A DNA stretch of 4,837 nt, taken from sequence record KM389299.1; one strand, written 5' to 3'. Of this stretch, positions 648 to 2,815 are shown piece by piece. The notes below the pieces were generated by a model, which was not told where the DNA came from, made no database searches, and saw only the letters and a list, made by a program, of their open reading frames with translations. Numbering within the stretch: the first letter of the stretch is position 1; every line of letters starts with the position of its first letter. Position numbers and translations under genes: made by a program. This stretch comes from Escherichia phage CBA6.

Positions 648-940
648 TTCAAAGGGGAGAGGATTTTTCAAATTGGCTGGCTTGCAGTAAAGTATCAAAC
701 ATGAGGGAAACAGCACAGTGTGAGTAGGCTTGAAACCGAAAACAGTGAACCCCTAGTCTCTGGGGCTTGTGTGAATAGAGGCATAATATCCACCTCGCTG
801 GTGTCAGTGGACGCACTTGACCGTCGGAGAACGAAACTCCCTGTTGTAGCGTGATTAGCTCAGAATCAGAGAGCACCCTGTTGGCAAGTCGACACCAACA
901 TATAAGGGGAGGTCGGGGGCGCTAATCTCCATCACGCCGA

Positions 941-977
941 CAACATTATGAGTCTTCATAGAGGGTTCATAATGTTG
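941..977 (+). repeat. 16-bp hairpin (941-956 pairs with 962-977, loop CATAG) with three G-U/U-G wobbles
   Basis: Pairs traced base by base: c941-g977 through t956-a962, including g952-t966, t953-g965 and t955-g963 wobbles. These are only pairable as RNA from the + strand. Confidence 0.5.
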
Positions 978-1068
978 CGTCAAAGGGCAACACGAGGATT
1001 CCTGTTGGTTGAATTAACTTGATTCATAGTTCCTGCTGATCTTCCCGGATTCAGAAGAACACCGACAG

Positions 1069-1170
1069 GACGAGGCCGGATGCGTAAGTTCCGGCAAATC
1101 GATGGTGAGGTGGTGCATTGGTGACACGGGGCAGCGCTCAGAAGTGTGGTTCGATTCCACACCCTCGTCA
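1069..1170 (+). ncRNA. tRNA-like module A: T-arm plus acceptor helix, no canonical anticodon arm found, no encoded CCA
   Basis: T-stem TGTGG (1145-1149), loop TTCGATT, CCACA (1157-1161). GACGAGG (1069-1075) pairs perfectly with CCTCGTC (1163-1169). A D-like hairpin CCGGA/TCCGG (1076-1080 with 1090-1094) follows directly. The 50 nt between could not be folded into an anticodon arm by eye. Confidence 0.3.
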
Positions 1171-1186
1171 ACAAAAATAAAAGGTT

Positions 1187-1214
1187 TTATCAATAACGGG
1201 TTACAAAGTATAGT
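1187..1214 (+). promoter_or_regulatory. Candidate sigma70-like promoter (-35 TTATCA 1187-1192, 16-bp spacer, -10 TATAGT 1209-1214)
   Basis: Hexamer matches of 4/6 and 5/6 with canonical spacing in an A+T-rich stretch immediately upstream of the 1234-1298 hairpin. Weak evidence by itself. Confidence 0.2.
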
Positions 1215-1233
1215 TAACTCACTGAACGGCAAG

Positions 1234-1313
1234 CTGTTTGAGTCCTGGCCACTCATAGCGATGTGAGACCAAGACAGGTAGGTTTAGGACTCAAACAGGT
1301 TTTCGTTTTCGTT
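1234..1313 (+). terminator. Long hairpin (15 bp, 1234-1248 with 1284-1298, two G-U wobbles) followed by U-rich tract GTTTTCGTTTTCGTT; terminator-like or 3' end of a roughly 90-nt sRNA
   Basis: Perfect 13-bp core CTGTTTGAGTCCT / AGGACTCAAACAG extended by two G-U pairs. U-rich run at 1299-1313. The loop is about 35 nt, larger than in typical intrinsic terminators. Confidence 0.3.
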
Positions 1314-1515
1314 GTGCGTGACTTTGCGGGTTTTTAGAAACTGACCACAAAAATAATCGCTAATGATAACACGTTCCTGGCAGTAGCTTAATAGCCATAC
1401 ACCAGTGAGGTCTTCCGATTCCTCATAACAAAATTCGGCGCACTAACAATAGGCGGGAGGGTGTGATTAATAAGCTCCCGCCGAACAATGAGCGGAGCGT
1501 GTACTTAATAGGTCG

Positions 1516-1584
1516 ATGGGAGCAGGCTACTTCTGAGAAATCAGGAGCGTACATGAGAAGGTTCGAGTCCTTCCTCCAATCCCA
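1516..1584 (+). ncRNA. tRNA-like module B: T-arm, acceptor 3' strand, discriminator and CCA; GAAA-tetraloop hairpin where an anticodon arm would be
   Basis: T-arm GAAGG-TTCGAGT-CCTTC (1557-1573). Acceptor 3' CTCCAAT (1574-1580), C, then CCA (1582-1584). Candidate 5' strand ATGGGAG (1516-1522) gives 6 of 7 pairs. Internal hairpin 1532-1536 with 1541-1545 has a GAAA loop. At 69 nt with no anticodon loop it is not a canonical tRNA. Confidence 0.35.
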
Positions 1585-1586
1585 AA

Positions 1587-1712
1587 GCCGTTATATCTGA
1601 CTGTCCAAAGGGGATAAGCTCCTGAGTAAGCAGAGGTGGGTTGCCTAAGTCAGATGGGATGTAAGGTCAGCGCTGGCCAAGCATTTGGGTTCGACTCCCT
1701 AAAACGGCTCCA
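1587..1712 (+). ncRNA. tRNA-like module C: T-arm, acceptor 3' strand and CCA; long insert containing an 8-bp helix (1595-1602 with 1649-1656)
   Basis: T-arm around GGGTTCGACTCCC (1685-1701). Acceptor 3' AAACGGC (1702-1708), T, CCA (1710-1712). Candidate 5' strand GCCGTT (1587-1592) gives 6 pairs and begins 2 nt after the CCA of module B. Assignment of the 5' end is uncertain. Confidence 0.3.
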
Positions 1713-1843
1713 CATCTTTGAGGGCATTCCGCGTCAGACGCGAGACTGCATGGAGTTTCAGGAGAAAGGCAACTTAAATCCGAGGCAGTAATGCCCTATG
1801 AAATATCGGAGCCTGTTGTACACTGAGTGCCCTCAAAGATGTG
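1711..1843 (+). repeat. 19-bp inverted repeat / long-range helix (1711-1729 pairs with 1825-1843) including one U-G wobble
   Basis: CACATCTTTGAGGGCATTC pairs with GAGTGCCCTCAAAGATGTG; every position checked, with t1727-g1827 as a wobble. The 5' strand begins at the CCA of module C. The enclosed 95 nt contains a CGCG-TCAGA-CGCG hairpin (1730-1742). Confidence 0.5.
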
Positions 1844-1968
1844 TCTCACAGCGCATCAGTTTGCAGTTATGCAAGCTCAATAAGTTAAAACGCGCCTCAG
1901 GCGTTATGGGATAAAGCCTTAAACAGTGGAATCCCCAGGGCTAGCAATCCCTGTCAAAGAAGTAGCCG

Positions 1969-2124
1969 TGTGGGGGTTTGCCCCCACAACGCAAATCGAA
2001 GTTCTTTGGGTATATCTTTTAACCCTCAAGGTCTGTACACAGATGTGGCCGTCCCATGAGTAAGTTAGGCGATATACAACATGTTGGGTCGAACCTGTTA
2101 AGCCCAGAGAACTTCGATTTGCGT
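1969..2124 (+). repeat. GC-clamp hairpin (1969-1988, G5/C5 stem, UUUG loop) followed by a 22-bp inverted repeat (1989-2010 pairs with 2103-2124) with one U-G wobble
   Basis: ACGCAAATCGAAGTTCTTTGGG pairs with CCCAGAGAACTTCGATTTGCGT; t2006-g2107 is a wobble. A nested helix TATATC/GATATA (2011-2016 with 2071-2076) suggests a multi-branched domain. Confidence 0.5.
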
Positions 2125-2502
2125 ACTTGAGAGAGCGTTGTATGAAATAGGGCAATGCCTTGCAGACCTCGACGCCTACACATTCTAGACACTGGTGGGC
2201 GCTGGCGAAGATCTCAATATAAGCTGGTCATCAAGGGTAGCTCCCTGACCGGACGAACAATGAGAGGCCGAACTAAGGGGAAACCCGAGACAGGCGCAGT
2301 ATTTTCAAGTTCGCAAAACAGTGATCATCCTGACAAGTGTGATCACTCTGCGACAGAGATGTAACATCGTGGCTATCAACCACATCCTCGCTCTAGTGAT
2401 GAGTGGTGTCATGTTTCTGTCGGCCAGCCTCGTTTGGTCCGAGCGTAGAGGACAAGTGCTGAAGCGAGACGAAGACGCTGAAGTGCGAGTTGCGACATTG
2501 GT

Positions 2503-2584
2503 TGCAACTTTGATGGCTCTAGATTTTATAAACCAAGTCTATGGGTGACGCGGGATCTTTAGTCCTAGAGCCATCAAAGTTGTG
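2503..2584 (+). repeat. 20-bp inverted repeat / helix (2503-2522 pairs with 2565-2584; 18 Watson-Crick plus 2 terminal wobble pairs), 42-nt loop
   Basis: CAACTTTGATGGCTCTAG pairs with CTAGAGCCATCAAAGTTG perfectly, extended by g2504-t2583 and t2503-g2584. Confidence 0.5.
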
Positions 2585-2728
2585 TCCAATCTGATCTTAC
2601 AAGCCCGTATCCCGATCTGGTTAAGACTTGTAAGTGGAAAGCCCTGGAAAAATAAACGCCTGTGGTGAGACTACGGTGCAAGTCAATGACCTACAGAAGC
2701 GCGTTGCTGTGAGGCGCACAAAGAGGCC

Positions 2729-2747
2729 TGCATGAACTGATCATGCA
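2729..2747. promoter_or_regulatory. Perfect palindrome TGCATGA-ACTGA-TCATGCA; candidate operator or small hairpin upstream of the HNH gene
   Basis: 7-bp arms with a 5-bp spacer, about 70 bp upstream of the ATG at 2816. No U-tract follows, so it is not a terminator. Confidence 0.25.
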
Positions 2748-2815
2748 CAAACGGGATAAAAGGTTGACAGTCCTTGATTGGACACAACAAATTCATATTG
2801 CTGTGGGTAGTTGTT

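Follow-up and report, generated by a model that had tools for sequence, protein, structure and literature searches.

The region from 650 to 2790 of the 4,837-nt window, i.e., the whole stretch of Escherichia phage CBA6 DNA analyzed here (KM389299.1), is a mosaic array of separate structured non-coding RNA modules on the + strand, located beside a tRNA cluster. Only one part of it, at 1298-1482 (hereafter, the core), is recognizably related to a known RNA: it looks like a tmRNA-derived coding piece, resembling the message half of tmRNA, the RNA by which bacteria rescue ribosomes, with a degradation-tag code of its own but no tRNA half. We lean towards a reading of the array in which the core would use the host tmRNA as its acceptor; if so, it would form a two-piece tmRNA whose acceptor piece is the tmRNA of the host. 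To our knowledge, no precedent exists for a trans-acting coding piece whose acceptor is a complete one-piece tmRNA. The source phage belongs to Kuttervirus (Ackermannviridae, CBA120/ViI-like), and the region shares its orientation with the adjacent tRNA genes and holds tRNA-like elements. Our literature search retrieved no description of the region, which is called unexplained in the CBA120 paper and goes unmentioned in the 2024 family review.

The region 650-2790 does not code for protein. The ORF desert originally predicted at 650-2770 was confirmed: no ORF exceeds 80 codons (the longest encode 80, 78, 75, and 75 aa), and none of the longest contains a Pfam domain above the curated cut-off. 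When their translations were compared with relatives, identity was 55-69%, against 75-88% for the DNA, and stop codons were often present. Because amino-acid identity fell below DNA identity in these homologous, degraded ORFs, the region was judged non-coding; the true flanking genes showed 65-93% identity and no stops in the same comparison. Conserved small ORFs were sought in homologs, and the ORFs were found to be broken in relatives and free of domains. Some annotators have called many small ORFs here.

We analyzed the core in an alignment of 37 distinct sequences (A1), of which 36 are relatives drawn from five kinds of enterobacterial phage. Its mRNA-like domain (1354-1394, +) comprises a resume codon GCT (1359-1361), a tag ANDNTFLAVA (1359-1388), and the stops TAA TAG (1389-1394). 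The resume codon is preceded by AUAAUC, placing U and A at -5/-4 as with U85/A86 of E. coli, which are frame determinants in E. coli tmRNA (PMC2481249); the AUAA at -6 to -3 is invariant in A1. The ten-codon tag was read directly from the sequence and was also reported by ARAGORN with -ps80. Twelve distinct tags occurred among the 37 sequences, each of 10 codons plus a stop, and a 13th variant was found in a phage-plasmid outside the alignment. Tags always start and end with Ala, and the last Ala uses all four synonymous codons. Entropy by codon position was 0.55/0.48/1.01, the third position being about twice as variable as the first two, a pattern indicating that the tag evolves like translated sequence, with mostly third-position variation.

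The stops lie in a helix analogous to tmRNA helix 5 (1377-1405, +; outer pairs 1377-1380/1402-1405), in which 91% of cells were paired and all four pairs showed compensatory changes. It is followed by two predicted H-type pseudoknots. In pseudoknot A (1406-1438, +), stem 1 (1406-1410/1421-1425) and stem 2 (1415-1418/1435-1438) were paired in 99.5% and 98.6% of cells, with compensatory changes in six pairs (for example, CCGA/UCGG, CCAA/UUGG, CCAG/CUGG, and UCGA/UCGA). Pseudoknot B (1439-1482, +) consists of stem 1 (1439-1444/1460-1465) and stem 2 (1452-1459/1475-1482): helix 7 was 99.5% paired with two covarying pairs, stem 2 occurred as nine different complementary sequence pairs of 4-8 bp, and the loop UGAUUAAUAA (about 1464-1473) was invariant in 37 of 37 sequences. 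Over the whole core, 90.8% of cells were paired, a level reached in 0 of 500 shuffles, compared with 84.5% after shuffling and 36-47% when the structure was slid, and both sides had changed in 16 pairs.

The core and tmRNA (SsrA, RF00023) have several features in common: the resume codon encodes Ala and is preceded by an A-rich stretch with U and A at -5/-4; the tag has 10 residues, with an AND start and a hydrophobic plus Ala end (ANDENYALAA in E. coli); a double stop codon lies in a helix; H-type pseudoknots follow downstream; and a helix immediately precedes the resume region, at the place of pseudoknot 1. However, an acceptor stem, D-loop analogue, T-arm, CCA, G3:U70, and tRNA-like domain are all missing from the core; it spans only about 185 nt with two downstream pseudoknots, and its 5' arm is antisense, not homologous, to host tmRNA. 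The resume/tag stretch scores below threshold with the Rfam models tmRNA_permuted and tmRNA (for tmRNA, 20.6 bits against a curated 47), and ARAGORN is silent at default settings. Among Rfam models, the phage cores best match the resume/tag segment of RF04321 (36.2 bits in a Felix-like phage), the two-piece, circularly permuted tmRNA of Alphaproteobacteria, some Betaproteobacteria, Cyanobacteria, and their phages. There, too, the coding function lies on a strand separate from, and base-paired with, the CCA-bearing acceptor strand. In contrast to the phage core, permuted genes yield both pieces from one precursor, with the coding piece starting with the 5' acceptor strand; the Rfam alignment of the core deletes the entire tRNA domain, nothing upstream of it encodes an acceptor piece, and an intact one-piece host tmRNA is its proposed partner.

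Matches to the region were found in 639 phage records; for 374 of these, identity was 60-80% and the match mostly covered just the core. The core is present in Felix O1-like phages, 46-58 kb siphophages, lambdoid prophages, and phage-plasmids, including an SSU5-like one, and is lacking in Dickeya phages. It is carried by 144 of 5426 E. coli genomes; the two carriers checked hold it in lambdoid prophages, between the Q/tR' region and the holin gene. A promoter-like sequence of its own lies upstream of the core in each of the Felix-like phages, the siphophages, and Mulvp2; in these unrelated phages it reads TTGACA-17-TATAGT or similar, with a predicted +1 within 0-4 nt of the 5' motif of the core. 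RefSeq phage surveys found no tmRNA in enterobacterial phages, where the core occurs.

The conserved 5' arm of the core (1298-1337, +) is complementary to host tmRNA nt ~68-106, covering the 3' strand of pseudoknot 1, the resume codon, and tag codons 3-5. Within the arm, GGUUUUCGU is the complement of host tag codons 3-5 (ACGAAAACU), GCG(U)GAC is the complement of GUCGC spanning the host resume codon, and for UUUGCGGGUUUUUA, 13 of 14 positions are complementary to the 3' strand of pseudoknot 1; exact complementarities of 8-9 nt are also present. The seed is AGUUUUCG, and the 5' motif (A/G)GUUUUCG occurs in 36 of 37 core sequences. The complementarity CUUUGCGG/CCGCAAAG could be a legacy of a pseudoknot-1-like helix within the core itself. 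In Ackermannviridae, a 5' hairpin domain (1224-1310, +; -39.8 kcal/mol, z -5.8, alignment A4) sequesters the seed; this domain is the 1234-1298 helix of the original prediction, and its 3' strand is the start of the core (GGUUUUCGUU) paired with upstream CGGCAAG/CGAAAAG.

The predicted duplex with E. coli ssrA reached -46.5 kcal/mol (z -3.6). Of ten members tested, eight gave -40 to -48 kcal/mol (z -3 to -6 against shuffles of either partner), and in seven of these the duplex lay at ssrA 54/56-106. Felix-type and L018 arms were much weaker (Felix-type, -26 kcal/mol, z -1.5 to -2). The arms of the 37 relatives paired about twice as well with the host segment (mean -31.3 kcal/mol) as with the equivalent segment of the core itself (-15.6), the host being better in all 37, and no member carried CGAAAAC within its own tag. 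Random genomic windows paired equally well at a rate of 0-9 per 12,000, which implies hundreds of equally good sites per genome, so that energy alone does not single out ssrA; the duplex test is valid only because homology pointed to ssrA and to no other target. Across Enterobacterales the target is conserved, differing at the seed in Dickeya, and it does not vary among known hosts.

Our leading inference from these sequence features is that the core may anneal to host tmRNA, replacing or blocking the host tag template. Annealing would mask the host resume codon and tag template and would bring the phage resume codon next to SmpB and the tRNA-like domain of the host, and the tag added when stalled ribosomes are rescued might then be the phage-specified one (...LAVA/...LMAA) in place of ...ALAA. 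It is conceivable, although unlikely, that the core is purely an anti-tmRNA, i.e., an antisense sponge or a trigger of RNase III cleavage that shuts down host trans-translation, with the tag-like sequence a never-translated relic or decoy. The same antisense complementarity and the missing tRNA-like domain suit this explanation. Mycobacteriophage DS6A carries a tmRNA fragment with the tRNA-like domain only, proposed to interfere with host trans-translation, and a molecule similar to it was shown to inhibit tmRNA; phage interference with trans-translation therefore has a precedent. However, a sponge or cleavage trigger leaves unexplained why the tag is always 10 codons plus a stop, why it varies mainly at third positions and keeps Ala at both ends with four codons for the last, why the frame-setting U/A at -5/-4 is invariant, and why the stops lie in a conserved helix followed by two pseudoknots. 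Like the DS6A fragment and the complete tmRNAs of Bxz1-like mycobacteriophages and Bacillus phage G, the core is a phage-borne tmRNA derivative; unlike them, which have the tRNA-like domain alone or with the rest, it is the complementary message half.

Three T-loop motifs (GGTTCGANTCC) had been predicted, and all were located on the + strand, at 1148, 1560, and 1688. Two of the corresponding elements end in CCA, as claimed, and the other, element 1 (1104-1171, +), does not. Element 1 has the T-loop GGTTCGATTCC and an acceptor GGUGAGG/CCUCGUC and lacks an anticodon arm. It is an optional module: it is annotated 'tRNA-Ala' in SeKF_64, is missing or replaced in RPN242, IME250, and L015-L017, and its position holds a different tRNA-like element in KNP4. 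ARAGORN reported element 1 and the tag only at -ps80 and did not call the core at default settings. In the mini element 2 (1515-1584, +; CCA at 1582-1584), the acceptor AUGGGAG/CUCCAAU contains a G3.A70 mismatch, a hairpin with a GAAA cap replaces the anticodon arm, the T-arm spans 1557-1573, and the discriminator is C. This element gave a weak tRNA-Sec-type match (17.4 bits), is Kuttervirus-specific, and is missing from RPN242, L130, L016, and Gloob. Element 3 (1587-1712, +; CCA at 1710-1712) begins 2 nt past the CCA of element 2 and is a long anticodon-less cloverleaf with a 6-bp acceptor, two hairpin arms (the second tetraloop-capped), a T-loop UUCGACU, and discriminator U. It folds at -42.4 kcal/mol on the + strand versus -27.9 on the - strand and is 96-99% identical across genera, where its flanks are 75-85% identical. 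A further cloverleaf (849-938, +) has a canonical D-arm (UAGCUCAG..GAGAGCA), carries a long irregular arm where the anticodon arm would be, and lacks CCA. By analogy with tRNA operons, these four anticodon-less elements may serve as punctuation for RNase P and 3'-end processing, releasing the neighboring RNAs. Counting against this role, two of them lack CCA, and elements 1 (1100-1172; z about 0, 0.1) and 2 (z -0.5) fold no better than shuffles.

The CCA-ending elements raise the alternative, which we regard as quite unlikely, of an autonomous split tmRNA whose acceptor would be the phage's own 1515-1584 or 1587-1712, with host tmRNA uninvolved. Two-piece tmRNAs do occur naturally, long anticodon-less CCA tRNA-likes adjoin the core in three unrelated phage groups (analogues are found in Felix-like and Klebsiella phages), and the highly conserved element 3 directly abuts it in L130 and RPN242. 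Yet G3:U70, the alanine identity pair, is missing: element 3 has C3-G70, element 2 G3.A70, and the Felix and L095 elements U3-A70 and A3-U70. No base-pairing between the elements and the core was noticed among the few motifs compared by eye, and the core is kept where the tRNA-likes are missing (Gloob, L016, L017, lambdoid prophages, and short Felix variants). This alternative also leaves the complementarity of the arm to host tmRNA unexplained.

The surrounding modules are also densely structured. All five long helices of the original prediction were recovered, with folding-energy z scores of -5 to -7.4 against shuffles, and all were more stable on the + strand than on the - strand: 941-977 (-19.7 versus -14.0 kcal/mol, z -5.1), 1225-1307 (-39.8 versus -28.9, z -5.8), 1711-1843 (-57.5 versus -49.4, z -6.3), 1989-2124 (-57.5 versus -51.8, z -7.0), and 2497-2590 (-43.8 versus -39.2, z -7.4). 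In Ackermannviridae alignments, four of the five showed compensatory changes, indicating that the helices are maintained through such change: 1989-2124 with 4-5 of 36 pairs at a sequence identity of just 67-70% (A2), 2497-2590 with 6 of 24 (A3), 1225-1307 with two plus G-U-compatible changes (A4), and 1711-1843, whose stem is retained with compensatory variants while its insert is exchanged between genomes. Helix 941-977 was invariant save for G-U/A-U switches and hence uninformative on covariation. Folding z scores, strand asymmetry, and covariation in A2-A6 thus support the predicted dense + strand structure in a non-coding stretch.

Structured unit 1 (650-1100, +) has 116 predicted pairs, 13 of them compensatory, in an alignment of nine Ackermannviridae sequences (A6), with block conservation of 79-95%. 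Its long-range helix 837-846/1063-1074 encloses the cloverleaf 849-938, and it also contains hairpin 941-977 and further hairpins. Downstream of the core, the long stem 1711-1843 (+; CACAUCUuuGAGGGCA.../...UGCCCUCAAAGAUGUG) bears a swappable insert, unrelated among relatives and in some cases T-loop-bearing (L130, L008, L015, L009). It is followed on the + strand by a variable segment with short hairpins (1844-1988), found in SeKF_64 and Gloob only (block G); a 20-bp stem with a structured apical domain (1989-2124); a partly conserved segment (2125-2496; blocks 2130-2318 at 78-81% and 2371-2457 at 76-77%, with 94% identity in Dickeya over 2426-2457); and a 23-bp stem (2497-2590, predicted as 2503-2584), the 3' end of which overlaps the closing helix of module M. 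Module M (2579-2788, +) is a multi-helix domain of ~210 nt, with closing helix 2581-2591/2776-2788 and 14 compensatory pairs out of 53 (A5). It is the most widely conserved part of the region, occurring in 273 phage records, mostly annotated Ackermannviridae and including Limestonevirus (89%) and Miltonvirus (79%), has no match in Rfam, and reaches 18 nt past the predicted end coordinate. This family-wide module and the tmRNA-like core were both absent from the original prediction.

The suggestion of one large structured RNA did not hold: modules are gained, lost, and swapped block-wise between related phages, related genera keeping or lacking each of them independently, and the region contains a conserved promoter-like site. 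The Rfam 15 scan (E<=1) returned only five true tRNAs, generic hairpin matches, and the sub-threshold tmRNA matches, with none to GOLLD, ROOL, group I or II introns, or RNase P. A single ~2 kb ornate RNA of GOLLD/ROOL type, folded as one particle, is thus very unlikely. Its dense structure with many long helices and T-loop motifs, its phage location adjoining tRNA genes, and the long-range helices 837-846/1063-1074 and 2581-2591/2776-2788 would fit, and GOLLD and ROOL likewise lie in phages or prophages beside tRNA genes with much conserved secondary structure. However, OLE, HEARO, and other large RNAs also gave no match at E<=1, no motif is shared with GOLLD or ROOL, close relatives independently delete, replace, or duplicate modules of this multi-unit region, two CCA ends are internal to it, and in Felix-like phages the core forms an isolated unit of ~200 nt from promoter to tRNA. 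Among the originally offered alternatives, a run of tRNA-like genes or a processed RNA array came closest. A graveyard of decaying tRNA/tmRNA pseudogenes or unrecognized small protein genes with no RNA-level function would account for the degenerate tRNA-likes, two folding no better than chance, and for the annotated small ORFs, but is scarcely credible, since across genera dozens of pairs are preserved by compensatory substitutions, conservation of element 3 and module M exceeds that of the flanking protein genes, the tag frame shows codon-level constraint in five phage groups, and the small ORFs are broken and domain-free.

Species 1 and 2 RNAs of phage T4 sit in its tRNA cluster. The array resembles them in having small stable RNAs among phage tRNA genes, presumably freed by tRNA-processing enzymes, and differs in that its elements lack anticodon arms and are embedded in much larger structured domains.

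Promoter-like sites accompany the modules. A motif TATTCAATAA..GTAAAGT (449-474, +), upstream of a 48-aa ORF (501-647), may drive the first structured unit. For the tmRNA-like unit, a consensus scan identified TTATCA-16-TATAGT (1188-1214, +), and this site, TTGTCAATAA..GTATAGTTA, is kept in Dickeya and Serratia (KNP4) relatives despite diverged flanks. The motif TCAATAA-N-GTA(T/A)(A/G)(G/A)T occurs in three copies in the window, at 449, 1188, and 3309, and repeat D4 spans the one at 449.

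In all members of the phage family, the 650-2770 stretch is bordered by a conserved hypothetical gene of 190 aa on one side and the tRNA cluster on the other, and the window is 92-99% identical to Kuttervirus phages (Ackermannviridae, ViI/CBA120 group). The original prediction had described 650-2770 as an ORF desert, and this description holds: the longest ORFs inside it are 80, 78, 75 and 75 aa, and none of the small ORFs contained a Pfam domain above cut-off. It had also named conserved small ORFs as the contrary outcome; in tblastn searches against relatives, the small-ORF translations were 55-69% identical in amino acids at 75-88% nucleotide identity and stops were frequent, and the genes flanking the stretch showed coding-type conservation. 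A small-protein reading was rejected by tblastn and Pfam. A 2024 review of Ackermannviridae mentions neither tRNAs nor non-coding RNA, and in over 270 phage records of Ackermannviridae type, dating from 2011 onward, this conserved 2-kb region is left blank or carries spurious ORF annotations. Our findings supply its content, in phages that are in wide use for biocontrol of Salmonella and E. coli O157.

We scanned the whole window against Rfam 15 using cmscan with permissive filters (E<=1), and three sub-regions at E<=10. No match to GOLLD (RF01998), ROOL (RF03087), other large ncRNAs, group I or II introns, or RNase P was detected in the window. The matches consisted of five true tRNAs, generic miRNA-hairpin models and a sub-threshold tmRNA, with RF00023 at 10.5 bits and RF04321 at 20.6 bits, below the gathering scores of 47. 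ARAGORN and RF00005 called only five tRNAs, all outside the region; the relaxed ARAGORN mode proposed in the original prediction returned a tag-bearing call. ARAGORN found no tmRNA at default settings or at -ps90 and made a call at -ps80 only. Most of the relaxed tmRNA calls (e.g. 2584-2785, 2770-3294 and 4079-4576), as well as the "tRNA with 400-nt intron" calls, were rejected as noise, being unconserved and overlapping real genes or tRNAs.

The tag lies in a tmRNA-like core at 1298-1482. Positions 1359-1394 read GCT AAT GAT AAC ACG TTC CTG GCA GTA GCT TAA TAG, which encodes ANDNTFLAVA followed by two stops, compared with the ANDENYALAA tag of E. coli tmRNA; ARAGORN reports this tag at the relaxed threshold only. 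The resume codon is GCT at 1359, an alanine codon without a start codon. In an alignment of 37 distinct cores (A1), we found 12 tags, with a 13th in a plasmid, all exactly 10 codons long and followed by TAA or TGA. Divergent members of the L018 and L121 type have the tags ANDSEMRMVA/ANDSEMRVAA. The first codon always specifies alanine, the last does so with all four synonymous codons in use, and the entropy at codon positions 1, 2 and 3 was 0.55, 0.48 and 1.01, respectively. From this substitution pattern, the tag appears to evolve as a coding sequence and to be translated. The AUAA at -6 to -3 is invariant (37/37 cores) and includes the U and A at -5 and -4, which match U85 and A86 of E. coli, the reading-frame determinants (PMC2481249). 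An alternative frame starting from an AUG overlapping the resume codon was rejected, as the window does not contain this AUG and a Shine-Dalgarno sequence is lacking.

The A1 alignment supports a helix just 5' of the resume region, at the position of pseudoknot 1, that is 94% paired with little covariation, and a stop-codon helix and two H-type pseudoknots that are supported by covariation. Pseudoknot A combines UGAGG/CCUCA with CCGA/UCGG, the latter also occurring as CCAA/UUGG, CCAG/CUGG and UCGA/UCGA. Pseudoknot B combines CGCACU/GGUGUG with a variable stem of 4-8 bp, for which nine different complementary sequence pairs were found, and has the invariant loop UGAUUAAUAA. Across the core, 90.8% of the cells were paired compared with 84.5% in shuffles (0/500 as high) and 36-47% when the partners were slid, and 16 pairs showed double changes. 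In four phage groups, the core starts at (A/G)GUUUUCG directly after the promoter, and its end lies in pseudoknot B; separate sigma-70-like promoters in Felix-like phages and at three other loci (L002, L004 and L106) place the predicted 5' end 0-4 nt from this motif.

The tRNA-like domain of tmRNA, with its 7-bp acceptor, G3:U70, T-arm and 3' CCA, is not present in the core. RF04321 aligns with the resume/tag stretch only, its tRNA-domain positions being deleted in L004 and L002 and borrowed in L003 from an upstream true tRNA-Ile; in the window, the hit spans the hairpin 1241-1310 with non-canonical pairs. The Felix-like unit, about 200-230 nt long, extends up to the 5' end of the next tRNA and has no T-arm, and the core does not show the permuted two-piece gene order of acceptor piece, intervening sequence and coding piece. 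No acceptor stem could be put together from the sequences on either side. The AAGAGCA...UGCUCUU stems flanking the core in siphophages and prophages, considered as a split acceptor in permuted or standard order, are continuous long helices with variable inserts; they covary as ordinary helices (AAGCUGC/GCAGCUU in L083), and CCA follows in some genomes only. The ARAGORN one-piece tmRNA at 1117-1584 was also rejected, as close relatives with the core lack its 3' tRNA-like half (1491-1583) and its acceptor is mismatched: the relaxed acceptor ATTGGTG/CTCCAAT contains a U.U mismatch and draws on a module absent from close relatives. The downstream true tRNA (tRNA-Arg in Felix-like phages, tRNA-Met in L002) was discarded as a tRNA-like domain for want of supporting evidence, and its adjacency to the core is more simply explained because RNase P would define the 3' end. 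When the core was searched against E. coli genomes, blastn matched prophages and plasmids and missed ssrA, so only the architecture and the short resume/tag stretch are similar to tmRNA. Given the sub-threshold scores, the core is therefore not a tmRNA by curated thresholds; the most apt description is a coding piece derived from tmRNA.

To survey its distribution, we searched 1305-1445 by blastn, which gave matches of 74-80% in hundreds of unrelated phages, and scanned viral contigs with an exact pattern, which yielded about 50 loci with the core unit. The carriers were Ackermannviridae (four genera, including Miltonvirus), Felix O1-like Ounavirinae, siphophages of 46-58 kb, lambdoid prophages and SSU5-like phage-plasmids. 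The core was found in 144 of 5426 complete E. coli genomes, many of them from human or food-animal sources. A tmRNA-derived family is thus missed by ARAGORN and Rfam, yet occurs in Felix O1-like phages, siphophages, lambdoid prophages of pathogenic E. coli and phage-plasmids. The phage tmRNAs listed in published surveys (from mycobacteriophages and Bacillus phage G, and a set of 79 unique phage sequences) had in every case been found with tools that require a tRNA-like domain. Our literature search found no tmRNA-like RNA described in these enterobacterial phages, nor any RNA antisense to tmRNA.

Several features of these loci accompany the core. In the two lambdoid prophage loci examined (L132 3100-4200 and L133 3150-4200), the late transcript carries the core in its leader, flanked by the Q/6S/tR' region and the holin gene and directly after a lambda-type PR'/6S RNA/tR' terminator; at this position it would be expressed under Q antitermination only. 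Among 224 plasmid matches in blastn, one plasmid was examined, the 104-kb E. coli plasmid NZ_CP024271.1 (L255 1381-2170); this phage-plasmid-like replicon carries a divergent copy with the tag ANEEVYLAVA and two stops, just upstream of a tRNA cluster and apparently with its own promoter. A long helix, CACAACAGGUAAGAGCA[insert]UGCUCUUUCCGUUGUGG, recurs downstream or upstream of the core in eight loci (L002, L004, L006, L083, L095, L097, L132 and L133), with compensatory variants and interchangeable inserts, some of which contain T-loops. Several modules in which stems enclose inserts with T-loops (e.g. in L130, L008 and L004) have an architecture resembling that of YrlA, the bacterial Y RNA-like tRNA mimic with a long stem closed by the RNA ends and an internal tRNA-like domain; Rfam scans of the window and of L002-L004 gave no match of this kind. 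The same small three-way-junction insert (..CCCUUAUGGGGCUUGGCUUAAAUGCA..) lies 3' of the core in Felix-like phages and 5' of it in lambdoid prophages. Acquisition of this siphophage-type module by the Klebsiella Taipeivirus cp21 suggests cassette exchange between phage families. Many other viral contigs from the pattern scan, including L021, L031, L041, L047, L093, L103, L108 and L123, have ordinary permuted (alpha-type) tmRNA genes, ANDNFAPVDYAQAA being an example of their tags; they appear to be marine phages with complete two-piece tmRNAs, a family other than the core.

We then compared the core with ssrA of E. coli K-12, computing duplexes with RNAduplex. The 5' arm of the core (1298-1337) proved antisense to it. 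At 1323-1336, 13 of the 14 positions of UUUGCGGGUUUUUA are complementary to ssrA 68-81, which forms the 3' strand of pseudoknot 1. The GUCGC that spans the host resume codon is complemented by GCGAC, present in the window as GCGUGAC, and host tag codons 3-5 contain ACGAAAACU, to which the invariant 5' motif AGUUUUCGU is perfectly complementary. The predicted seed of the arm comprises AGUUUUCG and GCGAC. In 7 of 10 members tested, including the window and all main types, the whole arm was placed on ssrA 54/56-106; the duplex of the window also reached ssrA 134-139, the Felix type covered 76-106 only, and L018 covered 38-106. Eight of the 10 duplexes had energies of -38 to -48 kcal/mol, with z-scores of -2.7 to -6.6 against shuffles of either partner. 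For the first 34 nt, pairing with the host segment averaged -31.3 kcal/mol compared with -15.6 for the equivalent segment of the core itself, the host being the better partner in all 37 cores, and CGAAAAC occurred in the tag of no member. Among 12,000 random 60-nt windows of gammaproteobacterial DNA, 0-9 paired as well (26 for the Felix type).

Several observations set the bounds of this match. ssrA is significant only as a single target specified in advance and does not stand alone across whole genomes. The core's own upstream helix may be the source of part of the match, arms of the Felix type pair weakly, and the 5' hairpin of Ackermannviridae holds the seed in a paired state. Across Enterobacterales the target sequence is conserved, the Dickeya seed being different (GACGAAACUUAC), and Dickeya phages keep the promoter and the 5' hairpin and have no core. 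Phage-host covariation of the arm is uninformative, since all known host genera share an identical target. Further complementarities, of CACUAACAA with ssrA 250-258 and of the loop UGAUUAA with 236-242, together with an identity between CUCCCGCC and the host T-arm, were treated as unproven because such 8-9-mers are near chance frequency. Separately, genomes of Yersinia, Serratia plymuthica and Acerihabitans (L208, L209, L179, L214 and L147) contain tmRNAs with a different resume region and tag (..AAUAAUUGCAAACGACUCGCAAUACGAAUCUGCUGCU), which the phage arm would not match; these may be second ssrA alleles.

The tag is apparently translated, the frame nucleotides are kept, the tRNA domain is absent and the arm matches the start of the host template; annealing of the phage RNA to host tmRNA is the simplest reading of these features. 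Tentatively, and from sequence comparison, we propose that enterobacterial phages of at least five lineages, this Kuttervirus included, encode a trans-acting tag-cassette RNA that hijacks host tmRNA. The 5' arm would anneal to the pseudoknot-1/resume/tag region of the host in an antiparallel duplex, from which the phage strand would exit adjoining host pseudoknot 1, placing the phage resume codon about 22 nt from the exit and near the usual place of the host resume codon. The host template would be masked, and the phage template would be offered to a ribosome holding alanine from the host tRNA-like domain, entering SmpB-dependent trans-translation and giving proteins from stalled ribosomes a phage-chosen C-terminal tag. 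Natural two-piece tmRNAs show that a template on a separate strand can function. A purely anti-tmRNA role for the core RNA would account for the arm and its position on the host template and leaves aside the coding pattern of the tag and the invariant frame nucleotides; we consider it somewhat less probable than hijacking. An autonomous system using the phage's own tRNA-likes is quite improbable: anticodon-less tRNA-likes similar to those at 1515-1584 and 1587-1712 do lie near the core in Felix-like and Klebsiella phages, and G3:U70 occurs in none of these elements, neither the window pair nor the neighbours of the core.

There is a substantial chance that the mechanism is new. If hijacking by a tag cassette is correct, takeover of the host through RNA-RNA contact would gain a new class, and this would be the first case of tmRNA being reprogrammed in nature. 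Should the arm pair as modeled, ribosome rescue and tagging would be manipulated by an RNA that borrows the host tRNA-like domain, and this would show how far trans-translation tolerates a template supplied in trans. This would also be relevant to why some phages need host tmRNA and to phage-defence conflicts that create stalled ribosomes.

The stretch was compared pairwise with eleven relatives, which revealed a mosaic of modules. The original prediction of a large structured ncRNA or processed RNA array stands as to structure and non-coding character; a single large RNA of the GOLLD/ROOL type is not supported. Module 1491-1583 is absent in several relatives, RPN242 and L130 among them; 1587-1712, where it occurs, is 96-99% conserved, and it is deleted in Gloob, L016 and L017; 1730-1988 varies among relatives; 1104-1171 is replaced in several genomes; and 2579-2788 occurs in all relatives compared, Dickeya and Serratia phages included. 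The five predicted helices were all recovered, with z-scores of -5.1 to -7.4 against dinucleotide shuffles and a + strand more stable than the - strand by 4-11 kcal/mol. Compensatory substitutions were found at 4 positions in the 1989-2124 stem, 6 in 2497-2590 and 2 in 1225-1307; the stem at 1711-1843 is maintained in relatives with its insert swapped, and the hairpin 941-977 is uninformative because it is nearly invariant.

The three predicted T-loops were likewise present, at 1148, 1560 and 1688, two of the elements having a terminal CCA. The elements at 849-938, 1104-1171, 1515-1584 and 1587-1712 show acceptor and T-arm features, with tetraloop hairpins or long arms replacing the anticodon arm. 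The cloverleaf at 849-938 has a canonical D-arm and no anticodon loop; it is enclosed by a long-range helix (837-846/1063-1074) within a conserved multi-domain structure at 650-1100 (116 predicted pairs, 13 compensatory). The elements at 1515-1584 and 1587-1712 lie 2 nt apart, lack an anticodon and end in CCA, for which we infer a processing (punctuation) role; a role as acceptor is conceivable, but G3:U70 is missing from them. Module 2579-2788 forms a domain of about 210 nt with 14 compensatory pairs; it occurs in 273 phage records, most of which have an Ackermannviridae annotation, and has no Rfam match. If the tag-cassette reading is true, the surrounding array would comprise several further undescribed structured RNA families, such as this module.

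A promoter-like site, TTATCA-16-TATAGT, lies at 1188-1214 and is kept as TTGTCAATAA...GTATAGTTA in Dickeya and Serratia phage genera, with further copies at 449 and 3309 in the window. The sites at 449-474, 1188-1214 and 3309-3336 share the motif T-TCAATAA, about 11-13 nt, GTA(T/A)(A/G)(G/A)T, and each precedes a transcription unit; from its sequence, it may represent a phage-specific promoter class.

Other features were observed in the adjoining tRNA cluster. An HNH homing-endonuclease ORF at 2816-3231 contains an in-frame TAA at 3035-3037, which is TAT (Tyr) in phage SeKF_64; beyond it, the frame, including the HNH motif, is intact to 3228 and overlaps tRNA-Met. Either the ORF became a pseudogene very recently or the stop comes from a difference in sequencing. 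A free-standing PD-(D/E)XK endonuclease gene at 3717-4148 (Pfam PF11645, E 7e-26) interrupts the tRNA cluster of this phage as an insertion; it had no tblastn match in the relatives examined (L005-L011) and is probably a mobile homing-type nuclease. Between this gene and tRNA-Gln, a second ORF-free block (4134-4420), GC-rich and with an A-over-T skew, is 86-91% conserved as far as Dickeya phages and contains conserved helices (in 5 sequences, 61 pairs are predicted and 3 are compensatory). This block, too, probably belongs to the array as a structured RNA. Finally, a long tRNA-like element at 4606-4745, between tRNA-Gln and tRNA-Tyr, is not called by default tools and has the T-loop GGTTCGAATCC at 4719 and the 3' end ...CUCGUG-CCA; it is presumably the "degenerate tRNA of undetermined specificity" of CBA120.
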